A DNA stretch of 49,072 bases, taken from an uncultured Candidatus Saccharibacteria bacterium (GTDB lineage Bacteria; Patescibacteriota; Minisyncoccia; Phycocordibacterales; UBA1006). The stretch's first letter is position 1; each line of letters starts with the position of its first letter. The notes beneath the pieces were generated by a model that saw nothing but the letters and a program-made list of their open reading frames with translations, was not told the DNA's origin and did no database searches. The translations under genes were made by a program, and so were the position numbers. The DNA is taken from NCBI GenBank assembly GCA_964628065.1, contig CAZVLM010000002.1, forward strand, positions 18,993-68,064, written 5' to 3'. Below, in pieces: positions 19,971-49,072 of this stretch.

Positions 19971-20480
19971 TTATAAGCCTAATATTTTCAGTACGAAGGG
20001 CGCTACAGGGTCAGCACTTGTTCCATATACCATAACGCCTCCAAGGAGTCCGGTAAGGGAAATCATAATGAGTCCGAGAACGGCCAACGTTGTTGAAAGT
20101 ATTGGATGGGTGAGAAGTTCTCCCACGAAAGAAAACATTTTGAGAATTTTTTGAGAGGTTACTTTTGTTGCAATCCATGGATTAATAAAAGTAATAAGTT
20201 CTCCTGCAAGGAGTAGTCCGTACAACCATGTTGCGGTTGCCGCAAACAATGAATGTGTTTCAACAAGGTCATGATTAGGTCGAGCAATTTCCTCTGCAAT
20301 GTCTCCAGTAAGGAGAGCTGCACCGGCGCCGAGCATTCCAAATACAAGCAGTGCTCGTTCAATGTGTTTCCACGAAACGTTAGGGAGCCATTTTTTAAAT
20401 GGAAGTATTTTTATGACCGAATACACCAAAAGGAGCGCGATAGGAAAATGAACGAGAAGGGGATGAAGGTTATATTGCAT
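19971..20480 (-). CDS. DUF2231-family membrane protein
   Basis: N-terminal HPLLVHFPIALLL motif and 4-5 TM helices. Confidence 0.65.
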   Translation of the reverse strand: MQYNLHPLLVHFPIALLLVYSVIKILPFKKWLPNVSWKHIERALLVFGMLGAGAALLTGDIAEEIARPNHDLVETHSLFAATATWLYGLLLAGELITFINPWIATKVTSQKILKMFSFVGELLTHPILSTTLAVLGLIMISLTGLLGGVMVYGTSADPVAPFVLKILGL

Positions 20481-20482
20481 AG

Positions 20483-20839
20483 TTATTTAAGTTCTCCAAT
20501 GATGAATCCTGCGAGTTCTCGTTCTGGTCGAGGCTGCCCGCCGTGTTGCCCGTTAAATGTTGCTGATCCGTCAGTTCCACAAAGTCCTTTGATTGCCTGC
20601 TGGCCTCCAGGATGCTGACCAATCCATGAGGTTAAGTCATATACTTTTCCGTTAACAATGCTCCAGCAACTTTGACTGCTTGCATGGGTTGCAACTTCGG
20701 CTTTTGTGTAATAGTTAGTAGTGCTAGTAGGAGATTCTGTAACCGGAGTAGTAGCGGGAGAAGAAGTATGTGGCATGAAAATGATCCAGGCTACGATGGC
20801 TACAACAACAATACTGAGGGTGATTGCGACTTTTTTCAT
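20483..20839 (-). CDS. Membrane-anchored cytochrome b5-like heme-binding domain protein
   Basis: CWSIVNGKVYDLTSWIGQHPGG matches the cyt-b5 HPGG core. There is an N-terminal TM anchor. Start set to ATG 20839 (TATACT 8 nt upstream). Confidence 0.7.
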   Translation of the reverse strand: MKKVAITLSIVVVAIVAWIIFMPHTSSPATTPVTESPTSTTNYYTKAEVATHASSQSCWSIVNGKVYDLTSWIGQHPGGQQAIKGLCGTDGSATFNGQHGGQPRPERELAGFIIGELK

Positions 20840-20861
20840 ATAGGACAAGTATACCTAATTT

Positions 20862-31321: not shown

Positions 31322-31382
31322 CCTTAAACAACCTTTCCAATAAAGGTTGTTTTTCATATATGCACCTAGTATACTTAGCTAT

Positions 31383-32417
31383 ATGAATAAATATTTTTGG
31401 ATGGGAGCTGGCATACTAATTATTACGGGTGTATTTCTTGTCTGTACAAATAATAAGTACATGCAGGCTTCGGTAATGAATGCATTAAAAATTAATACCA
31501 CAGATGCACAAGTCTTTTTAATGGGAGGGGATACGATTGTTGCTGGTCAAGCAAATATTTGCCACAACGATGTCTACTCATCTCGTGACATGATTAATTG
31601 GAAATTAATATCTCCTGATAATCAGAACCCTGGTACCACTAAGTGGAGCCCAAGAGGGGGACAATCGACGCTTTATTTTAATAATAAACTTTGGGTTATT
31701 GGAGGACAGGATTGCCAAGGAGACCCATCGAATGAGGTCTGGTCTTCTTCTGATGGTAATAGTTGGAAACTTGAAGGAGTAATAGGAACAAATTTCTCAG
31801 ATTTTCGAAGTCAACAAACGGCGGTAGTTTTCAAAAACAGAATGTGGGTAATCGGAGGACATACAGGTGTGAGCATGTGGAATGATGTATATTCTTCTTC
31901 TGATGGTGTGACATGGAGACTGGAAACAGGTAATGCTCCTTGGGCTCAGAGATACGGACACTTGTCATTTGTCTATAACGATAAAATATGGGTTATGGGA
32001 GGGGCTAATAGTGTTGGTGGCGTGTTTGCAAATGATGTATGGTTTTCAGGAGATGGAAAAAATTGGACACAGGCAACGGCTCACGCGGTATGGTCTCCAC
32101 GATTTGGATTAATGGGAGGTGTTTATAATGGGAAAATGTATGTCTTTGGCGGTTCTGACCTCTCCGGTACTTTTAATGATGTCTATTCTTCCGCTGATGG
32201 GGTGACATGGACTCCTGTTGCTCAGAACCAGTGGCAGGGACGACCTCTTGGAGTATCTGTAGTATTAAATAAGAAGTTGTACCTACTGGGCGGGATAAAA
32301 AACAACTATCTCAGTTTGAACGATGTTTGGAGCTATGATGGATCCATTTGGAAAAATGTGACTAATAATCCTGCATGGAATGGCCGATTTATTCACAGTG
32401 CAGTAGTAGCTCAATAG
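31383..32417 (+). CDS. Membrane-anchored beta-propeller protein (Kelch-like blades with Asp-box S-x-D-G-x-x-W)
   Basis: Five to six repeats of ...LWVIGG... + DV(W/Y)SS(S/A)DG(x)xW(x)L. N-terminal TM anchor. TATACT lies 6 nt before the ATG. Confidence 0.7.
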   Translation: MNKYFWMGAGILIITGVFLVCTNNKYMQASVMNALKINTTDAQVFLMGGDTIVAGQANICHNDVYSSRDMINWKLISPDNQNPGTTKWSPRGGQSTLYFNNKLWVIGGQDCQGDPSNEVWSSSDGNSWKLEGVIGTNFSDFRSQQTAVVFKNRMWVIGGHTGVSMWNDVYSSSDGVTWRLETGNAPWAQRYGHLSFVYNDKIWVMGGANSVGGVFANDVWFSGDGKNWTQATAHAVWSPRFGLMGGVYNGKMYVFGGSDLSGTFNDVYSSADGVTWTPVAQNQWQGRPLGVSVVLNKKLYLLGGIKNNYLSLNDVWSYDGSIWKNVTNNPAWNGRFIHSAVVAQ

Positions 32418-32431
32418 TTAAAAACTGCGCT

Positions 32432-33997
32432 ATGCAAAAAGCCCTCAAAATGATTCCTGAGATTGCGAGAAACTTATTCAGGATTAAGTATTTAATATGG
32501 TATGTGGTCGCGGTTGCAGCTACTGCGCTTCTTTCTGCATTAAATGTAGATGCATGGTATTTCGCGTATTTTCAAAATACGAATGCTTACACATTTTTCA
32601 TACTGGCGGGATTGCTTGGATTTTTCGTTCCCATCATCGGATGGGGAATACTGCTTACTATAGGAAACGTTAAAAAATCACAGCGACTTCAAAAGGCGGC
32701 ATGGATGTTTGCATTATCTGGAATACTTGGCTATTTATGTTCTACTTTCTTGAAAGTCTTTACTGGACGGATCGGACCACCGCACGGCATCGTTGCAAAT
32801 CTTGTTGAGTTATCGCATACATTCCAATTAGGAATCTATAAGGGAGGAATTTTTTGGGGTTGGCCGTCTTCGCATACAACCGTTGCATTTGCGATGTCAG
32901 TTGCGCTGGCTGTTTATTATAAGGACAAGAAGTGGGTTGGCGTGCTCGCGATCATTTATGCGGTATATGTCGGCATCGGCGCTTCGATGAGTTTCCATTG
33001 GTTGGGCGACGTTGTTGCTGGAATTATTTTCGGATCGATTATTGGAATTGTGGTGGGAAAAGTATTTTCAAAACCAGTCCACAAAACCGTTATTGAGGAA
33101 AGGGAACTTATTAAAATTCTAAGAAAAGAATTCAGCGGCCCCATTTCAGAAATCGTGTCACTTACCGGAGGGGAAGGATCGCAGGCGTTCAGTTTCAAAT
33201 TTAACAATGAGTATTACGTCATAAGAGTAAGCGACAAGGGAGCAGAAGCTTACTTAAAAGATGAATACGCGTATAAACATTTTAAGTCTCCACTGATACC
33301 AATGCCTGAAGTACTGAAAGTGCACGAGTCCGAAAATGGTTATTCTTATGCCATTACAAAAAAGGTTTCAGGATCGCTAATAAAAAGTCTTTCATTGGAA
33401 GAACTTGAGAAAACAATCCCGGACTTATTCAAAGTCCTGGATGAGATTCATAAGACCGATATAAGTAAGACAGTAGGATATGCCGATTGGAATCGAGACG
33501 GAGTAGGCATTAGCAAATCATGGAAAGAGGCTATCTTAGATGTCGGTGAATTTATTATTGATAAGAAGACAGGGAAAAGCATGTTCGATACTACTATGCT
33601 TGAAAAAGATTTTTGGGATAAAGCATATGCGCAATTAACGGAGCTTTTGCAATTTTGCCCAGAAGATCGATGGCTGGTGCATGGTGACTATGGATCAGAT
33701 AATACTCTTGCGAAGAATGGAAAAGTTACAGGCGTAATCGATTGGGGAGGATCGATGTATGGAGACTTCTTGTATGATATTGCATGGCTTGAATTCTTTT
33801 CAAAAGGATATTCGTATGAAGAAGTCTATAAAAAGCATTTAGTTTCTCAAAACAGATTGCCTGAACATTTCGACGAACGCGTTCGCTGTTACAAACTTTG
33901 GATTGGTATGAGTTCGATGAGTTTCTACGCGTATTCAGATCAACGAGATAAGTACAAAAGGTCTAAAGGAAAAATAGAAAAACTTTTGCAAAAATAA
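32432..33997 (+). CDS. Fusion protein: N-terminal PAP2-type membrane phosphatase + C-terminal aminoglycoside-phosphotransferase (APH)/choline-kinase-fold domain
   Basis: PAP2 motifs KVFTGRIGPP / WPSSHT / SFHWLGDVVAG. Kinase-fold motifs VHGDYGSDNTL and GVIDWGGSMYGDFLYDIAW. Confidence 0.75.
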   Translation: MQKALKMIPEIARNLFRIKYLIWYVVAVAATALLSALNVDAWYFAYFQNTNAYTFFILAGLLGFFVPIIGWGILLTIGNVKKSQRLQKAAWMFALSGILGYLCSTFLKVFTGRIGPPHGIVANLVELSHTFQLGIYKGGIFWGWPSSHTTVAFAMSVALAVYYKDKKWVGVLAIIYAVYVGIGASMSFHWLGDVVAGIIFGSIIGIVVGKVFSKPVHKTVIEERELIKILRKEFSGPISEIVSLTGGEGSQAFSFKFNNEYYVIRVSDKGAEAYLKDEYAYKHFKSPLIPMPEVLKVHESENGYSYAITKKVSGSLIKSLSLEELEKTIPDLFKVLDEIHKTDISKTVGYADWNRDGVGISKSWKEAILDVGEFIIDKKTGKSMFDTTMLEKDFWDKAYAQLTELLQFCPEDRWLVHGDYGSDNTLAKNGKVTGVIDWGGSMYGDFLYDIAWLEFFSKGYSYEEVYKKHLVSQNRLPEHFDERVRCYKLWIGMSSMSFYAYSDQRDKYKRSKGKIEKLLQK

Positions 33998-36160: not shown

Positions 36161-36976
36161 ATGAAAGAGTCTGGAAATTATGCAGAAAAATTAGTTAAGA
36201 AAACAGAAGAAGCAAAAGAGAAATTGATGTCCGGAGGAGTCGATTCTTTGCAGGCTCACTTTGAACTGCAGAATATTCAGCAAGAGGCTTATGGAAGCGA
36301 AGAACTTCGCAAGGAAGCAGAAGAAGAAAACAAAGAGAGATTTCCAGAAAAAATCGCGATCAAGAAAGGACTAGATTTTGTATTTGAGAAGAATCCTAAA
36401 TTGTCTCAGATTGGCAGTATTGAACAATATTCTGAATATTTAGACACTATTTTCCCTGATAGTAAATTCAAAGACGTTGTCTATCACGGCACCAGAGAAC
36501 AAATCCCTTTTGAAAAGTTTCATACAGAGAAAGTGGTCACGGCGAGAAATTTTGGAAAAGGAGTTTATTTTTCGCCAACTCTTGATAAGCCGCGAGGTTA
36601 CACCTATGACAGTGGGATGGTATTATCTGCGGTAGTAAATGTCACTAAGCCTTTCATTACAGAATCAAAATGGAAAGAATGGTTTCGAATAGGGGTACCA
36701 GTTCCTAATGGTTTGGGAGTATCAGAATATACCAATGGATGCGATACACTTTTTAATTATGATTATTTAGACAGGGATACGTTCAAGCAGATTAATGAGT
36801 ATATGGTTGAATACGGGGGAGAAAAAGATGAATTAGGATTTCCTGTATACCAACTAAGTATACGTGCTCATCCTGAACTTAAAGAAGTAGTAGTAGAAAA
36901 TCCTGATAGAATTCACATTCTTGGATCAGAAGCAGACCTCAAAGGATTTAAGGAATTTGTAGAAAGTCAAAAATAA
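36161..36976 (+). CDS. Putative ADP-ribosyltransferase-fold protein (PARP/ART-PolyVal-like H-Y-E pattern) with a coiled-coil N-terminus
   Basis: VVYHGTREQIPFEKF ... GKGVYFSPT ... EVVVENPDRIHILGS resemble the H / Y / acidic strands of PARP-like ARTs. Judged by eye only. Confidence 0.4.
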   Translation: MKESGNYAEKLVKKTEEAKEKLMSGGVDSLQAHFELQNIQQEAYGSEELRKEAEEENKERFPEKIAIKKGLDFVFEKNPKLSQIGSIEQYSEYLDTIFPDSKFKDVVYHGTREQIPFEKFHTEKVVTARNFGKGVYFSPTLDKPRGYTYDSGMVLSAVVNVTKPFITESKWKEWFRIGVPVPNGLGVSEYTNGCDTLFNYDYLDRDTFKQINEYMVEYGGEKDELGFPVYQLSIRAHPELKEVVVENPDRIHILGSEADLKGFKEFVESQK

Positions 36977-41920: not shown

Positions 41921-42613
41921 ATGATTCGATTATGCTCTGTGGGAATTACTTCACTTAAAAATATTCTTATGAAAATAATAGAAGCGTCAGATATCGGCAA
42001 GAAAGTTTTGGAAGAGAAGGGTATTCTTATTCTTGGCTTAAGCATTAACAACAGGTATTTCAGCGAAGAGAATATCGAAAAGCTAATGAACTGGGCTGCG
42101 CCTGCTTCATCGACTTGCATTATGATTCCAGACGAACCTGCCGTATGTACCATGATGGCTCTTGGCAAAAGTAGGGAAGATGCAGAAAGAGTTGCAAGGC
42201 TCAAGTCGAATGCTCTCGAAAATAAATGCAAAAAAATTCAGGAACGCCTAAATCTTTCAAGTGTCACCATACTGCGCTGGAAAGATATTAAGACGAATAT
42301 ATCTTATCAGCATGCCTCTTCCCATATTCAAAAGGTATACAATGTTGATGCGTCATTTGCTGCGGCGATTGATGAAACGACAAGAGAGGTGCTTAAAAAT
42401 GCGAATTCAGCAGAGCCAAGCGAGCAGCAGATTTCCATAGGAATTCAGTTCTTACTTCAGGAACTCGCATTCATTACTTATGCTGATTGCTTCTTTAGCG
42501 GACGAGACGTAGCTTACGTATATCACCGCACAATGAAAATCTTAAAAGATATTGTAGACGGCAAATATACTTTCCGAGCCGGGCGCCAGATTGGTTTCAT
42601 AACAGCAGAATAA
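41921..42613 (+). CDS. tRNA-dependent cyclodipeptide synthase (CDPS), NYH-type
   Basis: Blocks LGLSINNRYFSEENIEKLMNWA, GKSREDAERVARLK, QFLLQELAFI, YVYHRT and FRAGRQIGF are colinear with AlbC/YvmC as recalled. The alternative start ATG 41969 would give 214 aa. Confidence 0.85.
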   Translation: MIRLCSVGITSLKNILMKIIEASDIGKKVLEEKGILILGLSINNRYFSEENIEKLMNWAAPASSTCIMIPDEPAVCTMMALGKSREDAERVARLKSNALENKCKKIQERLNLSSVTILRWKDIKTNISYQHASSHIQKVYNVDASFAAAIDETTREVLKNANSAEPSEQQISIGIQFLLQELAFITYADCFFSGRDVAYVYHRTMKILKDIVDGKYTFRAGRQIGFITAE

Positions 42614-42618
42614 GTTTT

Positions 42619-42642
42619 AAAGCCCCAGCAATGGGGCTTTTT
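42619..42642 (+). terminator. Hairpin aaagcccc-agcaat-ggggcttt + TT after the CDPS gene
   Basis: Read directly, 6 nt after the CDPS stop codon. Confidence 0.65.
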
Positions 42643-42678
42643 AGACAAACCAATCTTTCTCTGCTATGCTCGGTTCAT

Positions 42679-43410
42679 ATGGATACAGGAACATCATTTG
42701 AGCGATTTGCAGAACAATACGATAGCGACATGGGCGATACGGGAAGCTATAATCACAAGTACACCATTGATCCGCCACTATTTGAGATTATTGGAAATCC
42801 AGAAGGATTAACCATTTACGATATTGCATGCGGAAATGGCTACATTGCCCGAAAACTTAAAAAAGAAGGGGCAAAAGAAATTTATGCGACCGATATTTCA
42901 GAAAGTCTCGTAAGGCTTGCCACAGAAAAATATGACGAATCAGGAATCAAGTATTCCGTACAACAAGGCGAAGATTTTTCAGGAATTCCAGAAAACCATT
43001 TCGATCTCGTCATTATTCACATGGCTATTTGGTATATTGCAGACGTGGATGCTTTTTTAAAAAACGTTCGCAAGGTATTAAAGCCAGGTGGGAGATTCAT
43101 CTTTTCAATAGATCATCCGATGAAGTGGTCACTTTATCGAGCTATTGGCGCAGTCCTTCAAGATGAAACTAATAAGGAAGAAGAAAAATATTTAGAAGCT
43201 CGCAAGGTAAGAACGTTTAATAATTGGCTCCAAATCCAAGAAGACCTGACAGTATACTTCAGGCCAATGAGTTATTATATGAACCTCTGCGGAGCAAACA
43301 ATCTTCTTATAAAAACCGTAAAAGAGCCCTACTCAAAAATCTTAAGAAAGGGGACTGAATATGAAAGCGGGATTCCTATGAAAATGATTGTAGAAACAAT
43401 AAAAGCCTAA
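42679..43410 (+). CDS. Class I SAM-dependent methyltransferase
   Basis: IYDIACGNGYIA motif I, LKPGGRFIFS motif. Start moved to ATG 42679, downstream of the terminator hairpin. Confidence 0.8.
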   Translation: MDTGTSFERFAEQYDSDMGDTGSYNHKYTIDPPLFEIIGNPEGLTIYDIACGNGYIARKLKKEGAKEIYATDISESLVRLATEKYDESGIKYSVQQGEDFSGIPENHFDLVIIHMAIWYIADVDAFLKNVRKVLKPGGRFIFSIDHPMKWSLYRAIGAVLQDETNKEEEKYLEARKVRTFNNWLQIQEDLTVYFRPMSYYMNLCGANNLLIKTVKEPYSKILRKGTEYESGIPMKMIVETIKA

Positions 43411-43437: not shown

Positions 43438-44604
43438 ATGAAGTTATTCTCCTCAATAATAATCACCATAATAGGAATACTGGCAATGGCTGGTACTGCT
43501 TTTGCAGAAGCGGGTACACTTATTCAAAAATACCAATCAGGTACGCCGATAAAGGTTTTGATTATTCCAGGCCATGACAACGAATTTTCTGGAACGGAGT
43601 TTAGGGGTATGCGAGAAGCTGATTTGAACCTGAGGCTGGCAGGAGAGATTTCTGAAAAGCTTAATAAAAATCCTCAGTTACAGGTAGTGGTATCGCGAGA
43701 CGTGAAAACAGGAAACTATATTCCGGAACTTCTTTCGTATTTTGATACTCAAAAAGACGCGGTTGCAAGTTTTACAGGAGAACGTAAGTCGCTCTATAAA
43801 AAAATGAAAGAAGATGCTGCTGCGCAGGCAGCTGCAACTCCTTCAAATGGTTCAGGTTCGGTCGTAGTAACGCCAAAGAAAGAAGTGCCCCATGCTCCCG
43901 CAAATGCGCAAGTTGCGTATCGATTATATGCCGTAAACAAATGGGCAGGAGAGCATGATTTCGATCTCATTATAAGTGTTCACTTTAACGATCACTATCC
44001 TCGCAAGGAAAACAAAGTGGGCGAATATGTTGGTTACTCTATCTATGCTCCAGGCGACATTCTTCCTAATGCGCATCCTTCACGTGAAGTTGCCGTGTCA
44101 ATCGGAAGTCGACTCAGTGATATTATTCCTGCAAGTAACCTATTTCTAGAATCAGATTTGGCTGATAAGTCGGGCGTTATTCCTGATACCAGTCTGATTG
44201 CGCTTGGTTCAAGCGCAACACTTACTGTTCCAAGTATCCTTATTGAGTACTCATATATTTATGAGCCGCAACTGCGATTGGAGGTTTCAAAGACGACACT
44301 AGAGGCAATGGCGCAGGCGACCTACTTGGGACTTGAAGAGTATTTATCAGGAAAGAAAAGCGAATCAAAAACATTTACTCATGCGTGGACCAAAAATCTT
44401 TCGCCCGGAAAAACAAGAAACAGGGAAGTGTTAGCCATTCAGATAGCACTTAACTTCTTAAAAATAAAAAGTTGCGCATTGGACGGCATTTATGGAGACT
44501 GCACAAAAGCAGGATTGAGAATATTTCAAAAAAGTCATGGCCTGGACGCTGACGGACTATTCGGAAAGAAGACAAGAATCAAGTTAAACGAGGCACTGAA
44601 ATAA
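43438..44604 (+). CDS. N-acetylmuramoyl-L-alanine amidase (Amidase_3-like) with a C-terminal peptidoglycan-binding domain
   Basis: Signal peptide. VLIIPGHDNEFSGTEF...E...HFN core. C-terminal LDGIYGDCTKAGLRIFQKSHGLDADGLFGKKT PGB repeat. Confidence 0.7.
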   Translation: MKLFSSIIITIIGILAMAGTAFAEAGTLIQKYQSGTPIKVLIIPGHDNEFSGTEFRGMREADLNLRLAGEISEKLNKNPQLQVVVSRDVKTGNYIPELLSYFDTQKDAVASFTGERKSLYKKMKEDAAAQAAATPSNGSGSVVVTPKKEVPHAPANAQVAYRLYAVNKWAGEHDFDLIISVHFNDHYPRKENKVGEYVGYSIYAPGDILPNAHPSREVAVSIGSRLSDIIPASNLFLESDLADKSGVIPDTSLIALGSSATLTVPSILIEYSYIYEPQLRLEVSKTTLEAMAQATYLGLEEYLSGKKSESKTFTHAWTKNLSPGKTRNREVLAIQIALNFLKIKSCALDGIYGDCTKAGLRIFQKSHGLDADGLFGKKTRIKLNEALK

Positions 44605-44611
44605 TCCATAC

Positions 44612-44637
44612 AAAAAACCAGCAAGCACTGGTTTTTT
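44612..44637. terminator. Hairpin aaaaaaccag-caagca-ctggtttttt (bidirectional)
   Basis: Perfect inverted repeat between convergent genes. Confidence 0.7.
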
Positions 44638-44644
44638 AGGTTCA

Positions 44645-44830
44645 TTACTTGATCACATCGGCTGCCTTCTTCCCAAGCACTGCGCCTGAAATAACGGCAA
44701 TGATGAAGAATACAAGGAAAACAACAAATAGGACTTTTGCGATCGTTGCTGCAACTCCTGCGATTCCTCCGAATCCGAGAATAGCGGCTACGATTGCAAT
44801 GATAAGAAAGATAACACTCCATTTCAACAT
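44645..44830 (-). CDS. DUF1328-family small membrane protein
   Basis: [25 protein letters not shown]... is the classical DUF1328 (YtjA-like) N-terminus. The track N-terminal extension was dropped. Confidence 0.75.
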
Positions 44831-44921: not shown

Positions 44922-46769
44922 TCAATAATAAGCTTTCAAGAATCTAAGAGCGCTATCGCGTTCAGAAAGTGCTTTTTCTGTGGATTCTTCAAGAGGGTCA
45001 AGCAGTTTCGAAAGGAACGTAATATCCGTTAAAATGGTAATAGACATAAGACTGCTTCGTGCGAGTTCTATATGATTGAAAACATCACTCGCAACCTGGT
45101 CAATAATTTCATACCAGAATAGTTTTTGAAGGGCATCCTTTTCGGTTGTAAGATTAAGTTCATATTCGTGATTATCCTTCTGCAAGTATTGTGCAATAAG
45201 GGGAGTGCTGACTGAATTTAAAAATCCATTCTGTAAGTCATGAAACCAATCATGCGCATCGTCATTTAACTGTCGCGCAATAAGGTAATGCCGGAAAAAC
45301 GATTCAAGCGCCGAAATCTCTTTTATCTTGTCCGGATGATGAGAAGCAAGAATAAGGAGAAGGGGAGCAATGGCGAGTCCTAATGATTTTTCTGCCAACA
45401 CAGAATGGTCTACATAATCTGGTAATATCGCAGGAAGATGAATAACTGAGTTTACTACAGAGCATTTGCAATGAGTGTACTCCCAGTGATTGGCAGTGTC
45501 GATAGTGTTCAAGGTTGTGATAATGACAGGGTCTGATGAAATACTTAAAAAGATGCTTAACATTTCACGGGCGCAGATATTTGCAGCAGGGAGGTCTTTT
45601 ATTTTACCGTCATCCAGTACGTCGTCATAGAAGGTATACCCAATCCAACCAAGCGCGTTTGCAAAACAAAGTTTTTCTATCATTGTGCCATCTAAGCTCT
45701 GATAGTCAGGAATAATGTGTTGGTAAAACGTCCTAGGAAGATTTGCGAGAGCGGATAATTTTTTGAACGAATTAAACTCTTGGAGAATAGGTTCTGAGAT
45801 AGTCGGTGGATAATCCTTAAGGAAATTATTAATCATGAGCTCTGTGTTTTCATTATGAGACAGAGGAGGTATTGGCTGGTGACATGCTTTATCATAAAGA
45901 GAAAGTGCTTCAATGATGGCAGTACAAGTAAATGCCTCGCATCCACTCCAATGAATGGCGTCTTTTGTAACTTTTTCTATAAATACAGGACAGTTCTTGA
46001 TTTCTGTATTTAATATAACCTCATCAACAAGTCTCTTGATTGTGCTTAGCTCACCATAAAGGTTTATATGAGCAGATATGAAGAGGGCTTTTTCTAATGG
46101 ATTTGCAGGTGTTTCCTTATCAAGAAGGATAAGCAAATCTTTTTGCAATGCGCCACGATACCACTTTGAGAGGAAATAGATAATAACAATAGGGGATTTG
46201 TAATAATCAGATCGTAAATCAACCTGCTTAATTTTGTCTTCAATAAAAGTGGTTAAGTTTGGTAGATCAATACCCATAACGGATAGAAAGTGCATAATGT
46301 TGCTGTTTACAACAATGTCTACATCTTTCCATGATTGCCTCATCTCGCACGGTACATCCCAGGTAAAATAGGGGCCACCTTCGGCGGTTTCGTTGCGGAT
46401 TAGGGTGTTAACGATGCTTACCATGGCCTCCTCGTCTATAATACTCGGGTCATAGAGATAAAGAGCAGCTAGTGCGATGCAAGTGTCGTCGAGATCGTCA
46501 GGGAGGTCAGAATGGATTTCGTTTGGTAACCTTGCGCGGTAGTTCCACGTCCAGGATAAACTTTTTTGGTTAATAAGGTGGCCCGCGAGTGCGTCTTTCT
46601 CATGCTTGAGATCTTCAATGTTAAGTGAAGAAATAATTTGTAGTATGAGTGAGGGGTAGAAATTTGTGGGAGTGTTTGTGTAAGGTGTACTTGAAATGGT
46701 TCCATGAGAAAGAAAGTCCTTTAGTAAAAGAATGTGATTTGAAAGCGACGTATGAAGTTGTGTACTCAT
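44922..46769 (-). CDS. Two-domain terpenoid cyclase/synthase-like protein (N: alpha/alpha-toroid-like with DLDDT; C: class I isoprenoid-synthase-like with two DDxxD)
   Basis: DDLDDT at 46482..46499. YDDVLDD at 45609..45629. QLNDDAHD at 45249..45266, 120 residues after the first DDxxD (FARM/SARM-like spacing). Confidence 0.5.
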
Positions 46770-46774
46770 TATGA

Positions 46775-48205
46775 TTACAGTTCGCTAGGAAATACTGCAG
46801 AAAATGTGGTTCCGCCGTCGGGGTTTGTTGTTACAGAAATAGAGCCGTTGAAATCTCGTTCAAGGATATTTTTGGTAGTCGAAAGGCCGAGACCAAGTCC
46901 TTTTGTTTGGGGTTTTGTCGTAAAGAATTGTTCGAAAATTCTATTTTTAATTTCATCAGGAATTCCGCAACCGTGATCGGTTACTTTTAAGACGGCGTTT
47001 TTGTCCCGTTTGGAAAGGGTAATGGTTACGGCCTTGTTGTCTTTAGTTATGCCATCGTATGAATCTATAGCGTTAGAAATAAGGTTTATTGCAATTTGAT
47101 GAAACTTAAGCGGGTTTCCAAAAAGGAAGAGTTCCTTAGGAAGGTTGAGCTTTAAGCTGACATTATTGATACGAGCCTTGTGTTTAAGCATATCCACCGC
47201 CTCGGAAAGTTCTTGATTCGTTGAGAATGTTTCCATAACCAAGGTAGGCTTTATCTGCTTCCGAATGGTTCCCAAAAAATCTCCCATACGACGACTTGCA
47301 TGTACGGCTTTTTCTACGGAATCTTTGAGTTCTGGAATTTCTGTTTTTGATTCAAGTTGGTCTACGTTTGCAATGACGGCATTTAATGGATTCATCAAGT
47401 CATGAAATATTCCCGATGATAGTTTTCCAAGTTCTGCGAATCGGTACAACTGAGATACTTGCTCACTTTGAGCAGCTTTTAATGCTTGGGTACGCTCCTC
47501 GACTTTTACCTCGAGCATATTTCGCTCTTCAATAAGCGCCAACTCGGATTTTCGTGCCCTTACCAATGATCGCTCCATTTCCCGGTTTGATAGCCATGAG
47601 ATTCCTGATACGAGGAGGAAGATGAAACTCATCTCGAGGGTGTCTTGCAGTCTTATTGGTTCACTTCTCCAATAAAGATGAACAGGAATAATGTTATGTA
47701 TCTGAAGGTAAGTAAGTAAAACAATACTCATCCCAATAACCAGGGTCATAACAAATCCGAATCTTGTACTTATTAATATACTAGAAATAACAATTACAAT
47801 AATCGATCCTAGAATAATCATTGGTAACACAAAGCTCCACGATGCTACTCCGTACATTGTGAGAACAAAATATATTGCAATAAGAATATATGAGGCCAAA
47901 CGGATGCAACTTTTTCTGGAAAGAGTCAGAAGGAAAGTGAATATTCCAACAAACAATAACATCCCTAGGAATGGAAACCCCACATAGGACTCGCCATATT
48001 TAATCTCAGAGATTAGTAAACTAATAGATAATATTCCCAACAAAATAATAGAACCAAGCAGGATTATGTTCAGAACAAACTCCCTTCGACGGATGTCTTC
48101 ATTTTTTGATTTTGGCTTAATAAGTTTTTCATATATAAAATGAATACCTCTTTTTACTAGGGTATTTACAGAAAAAGATCGTCTTTTGGTTAAATTGGTA
48201 TCCAT
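46775..48205 (-). CDS. Sensor histidine kinase (polytopic membrane N-domain, HisKA + HATPase_c)
   Basis: H-box SSGIFHDLMNPLNAV, N-box LISNAIDS, G-boxes DHGCGIP / GLGLGLS. 6-7 N-terminal TM helices. Confidence 0.9.
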   Translation of the reverse strand: MDTNLTKRRSFSVNTLVKRGIHFIYEKLIKPKSKNEDIRRREFVLNIILLGSIILLGILSISLLISEIKYGESYVGFPFLGMLLFVGIFTFLLTLSRKSCIRLASYILIAIYFVLTMYGVASWSFVLPMIILGSIIVIVISSILISTRFGFVMTLVIGMSIVLLTYLQIHNIIPVHLYWRSEPIRLQDTLEMSFIFLLVSGISWLSNREMERSLVRARKSELALIEERNMLEVKVEERTQALKAAQSEQVSQLYRFAELGKLSSGIFHDLMNPLNAVIANVDQLESKTEIPELKDSVEKAVHASRRMGDFLGTIRKQIKPTLVMETFSTNQELSEAVDMLKHKARINNVSLKLNLPKELFLFGNPLKFHQIAINLISNAIDSYDGITKDNKAVTITLSKRDKNAVLKVTDHGCGIPDEIKNRIFEQFFTTKPQTKGLGLGLSTTKNILERDFNGSISVTTNPDGGTTFSAVFPSEL

Positions 48206-48357
48206 TTTATTTATGTATCAAATTATTGATCCCAAGGCAAGAATTCTGTCTTTTCAACTGAGGACCGCTCAAGAACTTCTTTAGTTCGATGAGAGTTCTT
48301 ATTGAGAAGATTTTCTGCAAGTATTTTCATAAGTGAACTTTGCTTAACTTAATAAGT

Positions 48358-48381
48358 GAAATTAATCGACTAATTAATTTC
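48358..48381. promoter_or_regulatory. Perfect 9-bp inverted repeat gaaattaat-N6-attaatttc in the RR-HK spacer (candidate operator)
   Basis: Read directly. Function inferred only from symmetry and position. Confidence 0.3.
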
Positions 48382-48446
48382 ATGTACCAAGTTTAGCTAC
48401 TGCGTACTCAAGAAACATACAAGAAAAAATAAGACAAAAATAAATT

Positions 48447-49072
48447 CTACCGTTGTACATCAATCTTATACCCTCGTCCAGGGACATTATGAATGAGCTT
48501 TTTCTTGCGAGGTGTATCAATCTTTTTTCTTAAATTAAGAACATGCATTTCAATCGTATTTGAAGTTGAGTCTACATTCATATCCCACACATGTTCCGTA
48601 ATAGCCCCTCGAGAAACGACAGCGCCCTTATTCTTAAGGAGGTATTCAAGCAATCCAAATTCCTTCTTCGTAAGGTAGATAGAATTATTACCACGGGTAA
48701 CTTGCTGGGTGGTGCTATCAAGGACCAAATCGTCGAGCGCGAAAGTCGTCTTAGAGCTTAATGTAGGCCTTCTGAGAATTGCCTGCATTCGAGCAAAGAG
48801 CTCGTCAAAGAAGAATGGCTTTGTCAGGTAGTCGTCAACCCCTCCGTTGAGTCCCTCAATAATATGCGGCACATCATCAGTAACCGAAATCATAATAATC
48901 GGGGTACTTCTTTTTGATGCATTCGGCTGATTCCTAATCTCTTCGCAAACAGAGAATCCGTTCTTTTCTGGGAGTCCGTAATCGAGCAAGACAATATCGT
49001 AGTCATTAGCTTTTGCTAGGCGAGCGCCTGTTTTTCCATCAGTTGCTACGTCTACAATATAGCACTTTTCCT
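48447..49072 (-). CDS. OmpR-family response regulator (N-terminus runs off the window)
   Basis: Receiver DYDIVLLDYGLPEKNG...KPF and winged-helix LTKKEFGLLEYL...VPGRGYKI. The reading frame stays open to position 49072. Confidence 0.9.
   Translation of the reverse strand, partial: EKCYIVDVATDGKTGARLAKANDYDIVLLDYGLPEKNGFSVCEEIRNQPNASKRSTPIIMISVTDDVPHIIEGLNGGVDDYLTKPFFFDELFARMQAILRRPTLSSKTTFALDDLVLDSTTQQVTRGNNSIYLTKKEFGLLEYLLKNKGAVVSRGAITEHVWDMNVDSTSNTIEMHVLNLRKKIDTPRKKKLIHNVPGRGYKIDVQR

Follow-up and report, generated by a model that had tools for sequence, protein, structure and literature searches.

A gene designated here as X was analyzed in a DNA stretch of 49,072 nt from an uncultured Candidatus Saccharibacteria bacterium (contig CAZVLM010000002.1 of the assembly GCA_964628065.1; the whole stretch is referred to as the window). 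X encodes a protein of 615 aa in which a class II terpene cyclase domain is followed by a domain with the trans-isoprenyl diphosphate synthase (trans-IPPS) fold. It is the last gene of a cassette composed of a response regulator, a micro-gene for a peptide of about 35 aa, a sensor histidine kinase, and X, and this cassette is spread across bacteria of the candidate phyla radiation (CPR). It is probable, at roughly 60%, that X prenylates the tryptophan of the neighboring peptide and then cyclizes the attached prenyl chain, and that it serves as the maturase of a signaling system similar to ComQXPA. The features of the window that bear on this interpretation are listed in Table 1.

An original prediction, made from the letters of the window, had reported the open reading frame (ORF) of X and three Asp motifs in its translation. 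The ORF check reproduced them, and the motifs are conserved in an alignment of 55 homologues at 28-51% identity. The residues P90, D92, L93, D94, and D95 are invariant in this alignment, and so are G374, W375, D382, D386, Q500, D503, D504, D507, and D511. Since the motifs are among the few invariant columns, they are considered to be functional and not to have arisen by chance. The prediction had placed all three motifs correctly, but it had drawn them slightly short, covering the Asp-rich cores only. The spacing of 120 residues that it gave for the two motifs in the C-terminal half is the distance between D383 and D503; the distance between D382 and D503 is 121 residues. X alone has no match in Pfam and NCBIfam, and a single-sequence phmmer search against PDB also returned nothing. 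The profile of the family and structure models were informative instead.

The profile of the X family, compared with PDB, matched the terpene cyclase domain of the drimenol synthase AsDMS (9mhs/9m7d) over residues 44-309 of X with the e-value 9e-17. The AlphaFold model of X (pLDDT 93.4, pTM 0.86) also has AsDMS as its best Foldseek match, with the e-value 3e-7. A beta-gamma drimenyl diphosphate synthase of Streptomyces is a weaker structural match of the N-terminal half, the SQHop_cyclase_C model matches 13 of the 55 family members, and MstE matches the profile of the N-terminal domain with an e-value of about 0.3. The class II cyclase fold proposed for this half in the original prediction is thus confirmed by both profile and structure. 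The likeness to squalene-hopene cyclases proposed with it applies to the class II motif and not to the architecture. The N-terminal half has about 300 residues and one alpha/alpha barrel, and therefore it is a single-domain cyclase of the TC-beta type, as are MstE and the HAD-TC-beta enzymes, not a beta-gamma pair as in squalene-hopene or copalyl-diphosphate cyclases. The HAD-like phosphatase domain, which is the fusion partner in AsDMS and AstC, is absent from X, and its place as a partner is taken by the C-terminal trans-IPPS-like domain.

The catalytic residues of AsDMS are D331, D333, and Y427, where D333 is the proton donor and Y427 is its acid-activating hydrogen-bond partner (PMC12365925). 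D94 of X is aligned with D333 and D92 with D331, and the aligned tyrosine, Y190, is conserved in at least 90% of the 55 homologues. The N-terminal half is predicted to start cyclization by protonation through D94.

The C-terminal half was modeled as a separate domain with a pLDDT of 96. Its best fold matches in PDB are hexaprenyl, geranylgeranyl, and octaprenyl diphosphate synthases (probability 1.0, TM-score up to 0.69), and Ord1, an indole prenyltransferase, is ranked second with a TM-score of 0.60-0.63. The model of the whole protein likewise matched trans-isoprenyl diphosphate synthases. Two motifs resembling the first and second Asp-rich motifs (FARM and SARM) of this fold are present, and the class I isoprenoid-synthase fold that had been suggested for this half is confirmed, as the trans-IPPS type, by the structure matches and by profile-profile alignment. 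The invariant D382 and D386 correspond in position (i, i+4) to D85 and D89 of Ord1, which coordinate Mg2+ (PMC12510300). The Q-x-x-D-D element starting from Q500 has the same spacing as Q216/D219/D220 in Ord1 and Q197/D200 in PalQ, a tryptophan prenyltransferase. Ord1 and PalQ use this Gln and the first Asp to place and activate the indole.

The C-terminal half was also aligned, profile to profile, with the canonical IPPS that is encoded next to X in some genomes. The two are colinear over 231 columns, and FARM, SARM with its preceding Gln, and a D-x-x-G segment are matched. In the paired segments, YDDxLD corresponds to HDDxx, the second motif of X to AFQIxDDxL, and DLxxG to DIxEGK. The basic residues of canonical enzymes that bind isopentenyl diphosphate (IPP) and the diphosphate group (GGKxxR, RRG, GK, and EGK) have no conserved Lys or Arg counterpart in X, as far as this statistically weak alignment indicates. 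Class I terpene cyclases and squalene/phytoene synthases are absent from the top 50 fold matches of the C-terminal half. There is no NSE/DTE motif in X; its second motif is DDxxD. The profile of the C-terminal half yielded chance matches only against PDB sequences and NCBIfam. Two assignments were rejected: elongation of prenyl chains, as X lacks the IPP-binding residues and is co-encoded with a canonical synthase, and membership of the class I terpene cyclases or the squalene/phytoene synthases, as neither group is among the top fold matches.

These observations bear on the reading, taken in the original prediction, of X as a bifunctional terpene synthase that stands alone. Such an enzyme would release a free terpenoid that acts as a signal or a membrane lipid, and the part of the two-component system would be confined to regulation of expression. 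Either the C-terminal half would elongate IPP and dimethylallyl diphosphate to farnesyl diphosphate (FPP) or geranylgeranyl diphosphate (GGPP) and the N-terminal half would cyclize the product, as in the fungal PvCPS, or the class II domain would cyclize GGPP and the class I fold would ionize the product, as in bifunctional diterpene synthases of plants. It is consistent with this reading that both folds and both sets of catalytic motifs are present and invariant, that AsDMS, the closest solved relative of the N-terminal half, uses free FPP, and that isoprenoid diphosphates are clearly involved, as a polyprenyl synthase is adjacent in 16 loci. However, the beta domain is single, the C-terminal half has neither the basic residues for IPP nor the combination of DDxxD with NSE/DTE, no class I cyclase is found among the fold matches, and the canonical synthase encoded with X would make an elongating domain redundant. 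This reading also leaves unexplained a coding micro-gene with an invariant Pro-Trp, which is present in about 95% of the loci. A stand-alone terpene synthase is thus quite unlikely.

A homologue search found 108 full-length relatives of X (580-700 aa). All are metagenomic, and the named ones are from Saccharibacteria, Nomurabacteria, and Paceibacterota. An exhaustive profile search of 1.84 billion representatives revealed 1,594 proteins at e-values of 1e-30 or lower, and 306 species had relatives when one genome of each species was scanned. Of the best 80 loci, nearly all are titled as CPR: Saccharibacteria, Nomura-, Levyi-, Davies-, Shapiro-, Moranii-, Doudna-, and Taylorbacteria, CPR2, and Paceibacterota. 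When the X profile was used for another homologue search, this time word-indexed, the same family came up again and no relatives outside it. Some records of metagenome-assembled genomes with a cassette of the CPR type are titled as "uncultured Gammaproteobacteria" (many), Sulfotelmatobacter, or Methylomirabilota (single records); examples are L013, L019, L023, L029, L039, and L041. These labels look wrong, or the contigs look misbinned.

Conservation of the neighbors was analyzed in 85 non-redundant loci, where all ORFs were clustered against each other. Most of these loci have the order regulator, peptide, kinase, and X on one strand. Besides the micro-gene, conservation among the neighbors is limited to the kinase (in 84 loci), the regulator (in 76), and a canonical polyprenyl synthase of about 345 aa (in 16). 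Other clusters in at least 8 loci are shadow ORFs, a BrkB-like protein (8 loci), and an ABC-transporter-sized protein (10 loci) encoded about 3.3 kb past the 3' end of X. BLASTP found an orthologous kinase (e-values 1e-66 to 1e-171) directly upstream of X in 86 of 88 loci, and when six homologues were examined individually, X directly followed the kinase and the regulator in all six. The coupling of X to a two-component system, which had been inferred from the window alone, is thus real and strongly conserved. In two Saccharibacteria-type loci, an ORF of 157-164 aa without any Pfam match lies directly 3' of X on the same strand (L005:9941-10435 and L007:10006-10479), and it could be a lineage-specific extra component.

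The kinase of the window has about six transmembrane segments within residues 43-206, joined by short loops and without any large extracytoplasmic domain, followed by HisKA and HATPase_c. Among 77 orthologues, hydropathy indicated 4-7 hydrophobic segments (mode 5-6) within the first approximately 190 residues. This layout suits sensing within or at the membrane.

The micro-gene between the regulator and the kinase was overlooked in the original prediction. An ORF of 20-70 aa with Trp in its last 8 residues is present in 82 of the 86 regulator-kinase gaps, and in three of the six individually examined loci an ORF of 34-37 aa had already been marked there by gene callers. The peptide consists of an N-terminal leader, with the pattern L-x-x-xxx-R, and a C-terminal core with Pro-Trp. 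The 69 distinct peptides are readily aligned: a basic amphipathic leader (consensus M-K-x-L-[IL]-K-K-[IV]-L-T-D-K-x-A-R-N) comes first, about 15 variable residues follow, and x-P-W-x(1-6) forms the C-terminus. Located 1-6 residues from the end, Trp is single in 66 of them and preceded by Pro in 58. A loose pattern (L-x-x-xxx-R, then 12-24 residues, W, and 1-6 residues to the end) was recognized in 73 of 182 small ORFs in the gaps, covering 73 of 77 loci, versus 29 of 8753 small ORFs elsewhere. In four close pairs, synonymous and nonsynonymous divergence are 0.52 (pS) and 0.086 (pN), and the pN/pS ratio of 0.17 indicates purifying selection on the protein encoded by the micro-gene. The peptides have no match among the models of Pfam and NCBIfam. 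The Trp-containing peptide is likely to be the substrate of X. In the spacer between the regulator and the micro-gene of the window, at about 48345-48395 on the minus strand, there are an AT-rich inverted repeat (AAATTAAT...ATTAATTT-like) and a direct repeat TTAAG TTAAG, which could be an operator or a promoter for autoregulation.

The possibility that the micro-gene encodes a membrane mini-protein was rejected, as many versions are hydrophilic. A related interpretation does without peptide modification altogether: X would be a non-catalytic or isoprenoid-binding modulator of the kinase, and the micro-gene product would be a small kinase regulator like MgrB or SafA. Three-component operons with accessory proteins are common, and some micro-gene products have a hydrophobic middle segment. 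This interpretation is nevertheless very improbable, considering that the catalytic Asp and Tyr residues are invariant in both domains, that X has neither a transmembrane segment nor a signal peptide, that many micro-gene products, including that of the window, are hydrophilic and unable to span a membrane, and that the adjacent polyprenyl synthase suggests a supply of substrate.

This polyprenyl synthase (PF00348, e-values 1e-54 to 1e-60) is on the strand of the cassette in all 16 of its loci, such as L010:2286-3323, L020:6768-7823, and L060:6808-7875. In 11 loci, it is directly 3' of X and translationally coupled to it, mostly overlapping the stop codon of X; in the other 5 loci, it is just 5' of the micro-gene.

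The reactions proposed for the cassette can be ordered as follows. A polyprenyl synthase would provide the donor, FPP or GGPP; its gene belongs to the cassette in about one-fifth of the loci and would otherwise be located elsewhere in the genome. The C-terminal half of X would bind this prenyl diphosphate through D382/D386 and Mg2+ and ionize it. The prenyl group would then be transferred to the indole of the invariant Trp, the putative acceptor, which Q500 and D503 may place as the corresponding residues do in ComQ, PalQ, and Ord1. The N-terminal half would protonate the distal double bond through D94, with D92 and Y190, and the resulting cation-olefin cyclization may leave a bi- or polycyclic group similar to drimane or labdane on the peptide. 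The leader would be cut off, and the lipophilic peptide would exit the cell. The membrane domain of the kinase would sense it, and the kinase would phosphorylate the regulator, which would control the operon and a further regulon.

ChrPC and NctPC are fused enzymes that prenylate Trp and then cyclize the prenyl group, as they are described in a review (PMC13290415) citing the original work (Hubrich et al. 2024, Chem 10:3224). Prenylation is placed before cyclization here on the basis of the order described for ChrPC and of our own reasoning that drimenyl diphosphate, which would arise if FPP were cyclized first, is non-allylic and would be a poor donor for a transfer that depends on ionization.

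The same enzyme chemistry could yield a product that is mainly an effector, namely an antimicrobial or host-directed lipopeptide, with the kinase and regulator used for autoinduction or self-protection as in the nisin type. The characterized cyclized-prenyl peptides of the NctPC/ChrPC class are natural products belonging to the peptides that are made on ribosomes and modified after translation (RiPPs), according to the secondary description of them. One of the products of Hubrich and co-workers is reportedly modestly anti-cyanobacterial. CPR bacteria live attached to hosts, and the core of the peptide is highly variable between lineages. On the other hand, the cassette has no conserved gene for immunity, an ABC transporter, or a protease beside it, and the tight, near-universal pairing with one orthologous polytopic kinase and one regulator is a hallmark of a ligand and its receptor, as for ComX and ComP. 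Effector and pheromone roles are not mutually exclusive. A mainly effector role is rather unlikely, and the role as a maturase of a signal, stated at the beginning, is preferred for X.

A broader proposal is more tentative and is put at somewhat less than even odds: that the cassette is a dedicated system of cell-cell signaling common to hundreds of CPR species, in which a peptide with a Trp-linked cyclized terpene is produced by a cyclase-prenyltransferase fusion and perceived by a cognate intramembrane-sensing kinase in Saccharibacteria, lineages of Parcubacteria and Microgenomates, and CPR2. Such a system would be the first peptide-pheromone circuit, for quorum or partner sensing, described for ultra-small episymbionts, and it would represent a new class of precursor and maturase among prenylated RiPPs.

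Several points weigh against the maturase function of X. The evidence is wholly computational, and the function is inferred from it. Chain-elongating synthases match the fold of the C-terminal half as well as Ord1 does, and the profile-profile alignment with the canonical IPPS has low support (5% probability, e-value 0.007). The Q-x-x-DD element is not diagnostic for transfer to Trp, because canonical IPPS also have FQxxDD (Q223, alignment A4). At the sequence level, no similarity of the C-terminal half to ComQ, PalQ, Ord1, or the models of Pfam and NCBIfam was detected, and the link is at the level of the fold only. The clustering of 85 loci, with its cut-off of at least 8 loci, revealed no conserved protease, exporter, or immunity gene in the cassette. 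An obvious Shine-Dalgarno sequence is absent before the micro-gene of the window, and the 49-kb window includes no polyprenyl synthase and no gene of the methylerythritol phosphate or mevalonate pathways. The reverse order, in which GGPP is cyclized before transfer, is possible. Finally, the kinase has HisKA and HATPase_c and the regulator is of the OmpR type, unlike ComP and ComA, the kinase and regulator of ComQXPA. ComP and ComA belong to the HisKA_3 and NarL (LuxR/NarL-type) classes. Due to these different classes, the likeness to ComQXPA is one of design, not of descent.

Table 1. Features of X and its neighborhood in the window (positions are counted from the first nucleotide of the window).
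Feature	Position	Strand	Basis
OmpR-family response regulator	48447..49072, 5' end beyond the window	-	Pfam Response_reg E 4e-12, Trans_reg_C E 2e-24
Micro-gene, candidate precursor peptide of 35 aa, MKILAENLLNKNSHRTKEVLERSSVEKTEFLPWDQ	48223..48330	-	ORF list and sequence; Pro-Trp three residues from the end
Polytopic sensor histidine kinase, 476 aa	46775..48205	-	Pfam HATPase_c E 5e-24, HisKA E 1e-4
X, whole ORF	44922..46769	-	ATG start, 615 aa
X N-terminal domain, residues 1-300, single alpha/alpha-barrel TC-beta, AsDMS/AstC type	45870..46769	-	Profile and Foldseek
DDLDDTCIA, X residues 91-99	46473..46499	-	
DxDD(T) general-acid motif D92-L-D94-D95-T96	46482..46496	-	HMM alignment, PDDLDDT versus AsDMS PDDLDTT
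Y190, aligned to AsDMS Y427	46200..46202	-	SPYY against TRYYP in the profile alignment
X C-terminal domain, residues 307-615, all-alpha trans-IPPS-like, putative tryptophan prenyltransferase	44925..45851	-	Structure model
First Asp-rich stretch of the C-terminal half, X residues 377-387	45609..45641	-	
FARM, D382-D383-V-L-D386	45612..45626	-	D382 and D386 invariant; aligned to DDxxD of canonical IPPS
Second Asp-rich stretch of the C-terminal half, X residues 497-507	45249..45281	-	
Q500-L-N-D503-D504-A-H-D507, second Asp-rich motif and the Gln three residues before it	45249..45272	-	Q500, D503, D504, and D507 invariant
DUF1328 small membrane protein	44645..44830	-	Pfam DUF1328 E 9e-15
Hairpin with U-run, 3' of DUF1328	44596-44650	-	dG -15.4 kcal/mol, z -3.4

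The junctions of X were found as the original prediction had described them. The stop codon of the kinase (46775..46777) is followed by 5 nt and then by the ATG of X at 46769, and the stop codon of X is followed by 91 nt and then by the ATG of the DUF1328 gene at 44830. No terminator-like site was found when the minus strand of the gap between X and DUF1328 was scanned. DUF1328 is probably co-transcribed with X in the genome of the window, although its homologues are absent at the other X loci and it is thus outside the conserved cassette. The hairpin in Table 1 lies between the convergent genes for DUF1328 and an amidase, and it is probably a bidirectional terminator that closes the transcript of the cassette.

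A tRNA-dependent cyclodipeptide synthase (PF16715, e-value 7e-26; TIGR04539, e-value 3e-39) is encoded on the plus strand and followed after 18 nt by an S-adenosylmethionine-dependent methyltransferase (window positions 41921-43410). Together they resemble a small pathway for diketopiperazines, here encoded by a CPR genome. The prediction had hinted at a link between X and diketopiperazines. This drimentine-like link to genes 2.3 kb away was rejected, because the pair occurs at no other locus, a cyclodipeptide synthase being present at none of the 84 others.

The segment 30690-39758 of the window and the segment 14459-19676 of locus L003, which carries a 41%-identical homologue (P0003), have a common block of genes for the ribosomal protein L19, a pseudouridine synthase, RelA/SpoT, PMSR, and a DAO oxidoreductase, from which it follows that their genomes are rather closely related. 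Several other genes of the window were recorded. On the plus strand, a Kelch-repeat beta-propeller protein (e-value 2e-30) is encoded at 31347-32417, a PAP2 phosphatase fused in one ORF to an APH-type (aminoglycoside/choline kinase-like) phosphotransferase at 32375-33997, and a protein with an ART-PolyVal ADP-ribosyltransferase domain (e-value 6e-8), possibly a toxin-like effector, at 36161-36976. On the minus strand, a cytochrome b5-like heme/steroid-binding protein, unusual for a reduced genome, is encoded at 19971-20848 beside a DUF2231 membrane protein.

A large share of bacterial diversity belongs to CPR, whose members have tiny genomes and for the most part live attached to other cells. 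To our knowledge, the means by which they perceive partners or kin are almost wholly undescribed. The cassette is found in at least 306 species, with about 1,600 protein clusters, and takes about 4 kb of a genome of roughly 1 Mb, and so it must matter to its carriers. If the proposed function is correct, it would offer a synthesizable signal with its cognate receptor for the few cultivable Saccharibacteria. It would also extend ComX-type isoprenylation of Trp far beyond Firmicutes. X would then be a compact two-domain enzyme that places cyclic terpenes on short peptides, which would make it interesting for peptide lipidation. In addition, isoprenoid chemistry in minimal genomes could serve signaling instead of lipid supply.

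No report of ComQ-like or terpene-RiPP systems in CPR/Patescibacteria, of the X family, or of the micro-gene was found in the searchable literature, which did not cover the original ChrPC paper. Curated models are lacking for both X and the micro-gene peptide. The domain combination had not been recognized as a described one in the original prediction. This does not hold entirely, as fused prenyltransferase-terpene cyclases, NctPC and ChrPC, were reported in 2024, as cited in PMC13290415. It is possible that the X family overlaps the genome-mining data for these enzymes. The cassette is not categorically new, because its parts are of known kinds and its chemistry has the precedent of 2024. What is new is that this domain order and an AsDMS-type cyclase occur together with a very short ComX-like precursor, fixed wiring to an OmpR-type two-component system, and a CPR-wide spread.

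Several characterized systems resemble the cassette in part. In the plant CPS/KS-type enzymes and the fungal PvCPS, as in X, a DxDD cyclase and an Asp-rich, diphosphate-ionizing domain of the class I fold are in one chain. These enzymes have a beta-gamma didomain with a true class I cyclase or an IPP-condensing prenyltransferase, whereas X has a single beta domain and an alpha domain without NSE/DTE and IPP-binding residues. The HAD-TC-beta drimenol/drimenyl synthases of the bacterial AsDMS and fungal AstC types have the single beta domain, the PDDLD(D/T)T motif, and the Asp-Asp-Tyr set in common with X. Their fusion partner is an N-terminal HAD phosphatase, versus a C-terminal prenyltransferase-like domain in X, and they act on free FPP, versus a likely prenylated peptide.

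Ord1, an all-alpha indole/tryptophan farnesyltransferase (PDB 9V4G-J), resembles the C-terminal half in the i/i+4 Asp pair of FARM and in Q-x-x-D-D. Unlike X, it works as a separate enzyme on free indole or tryptophan and has DDxxA as a pseudo-SARM, and its sequence identity to X is only about 15%. PalP/PalX/PalQ from Paenibacillus alvei and StheQ/StheX from Sphaerobacter thermophilus are closer in gene arrangement: a trans-IPPS-like Trp prenyltransferase is encoded beside a precursor with a C-terminal Trp, and in Paenibacillus a histidine kinase is also present. PalQ and StheQ share with X the Gln three residues before the second Asp-rich motif, which is proposed to bind the indole NH. In contrast to X, they lack a cyclase domain, the precursors they act on exceed 35 aa in length (NHLP type, or 69 aa), and the motif spacing in PalQ, from D89 to D200, is 111 residues versus 121 from D382 to D503 in X.

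ChrPC and NctPC, compared here by their description in the citing review, are similar to X in combining a peptide-Trp prenyltransferase and a class II-type cyclase in one polypeptide beside a precursor gene. The prenyltransferase domain of ChrPC is described as similar to trans-isoprenyl diphosphate synthases, as is the C-terminal half of X. By the same description, they differ in that the cyclase of X is N-terminal and nearest to the TC-beta of AsDMS/AstC, not to MstE, that the precursor here is a ComX-like peptide of 35 aa and not of the proteusin, Nif11, or lasso type, and that a dedicated two-component system is present here.

ComQ geranylates or farnesylates a Trp near the C-terminus of ComX, and the product is sensed by the polytopic kinase ComP (PMC4008528; StheQ preprint). 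The cassette corresponds to ComQXPA in having four adjacent genes on one strand, an enzyme of the trans-IPPS fold in which the first motif is rich in Asp, a short precursor with a core conserved only in a Trp a few residues before the C-terminus, and a polytopic membrane kinase with a response regulator. Compared with ComQXPA, the order here is regulator, peptide, kinase, and enzyme instead of comQ-X-P-A, and the hosts are CPR bacteria instead of Firmicutes. X has no detectable sequence similarity to ComQ; it has an extra class II cyclase domain and a full DDxxD as the second motif, where ComQ has the pseudo-SARM NDxxx.

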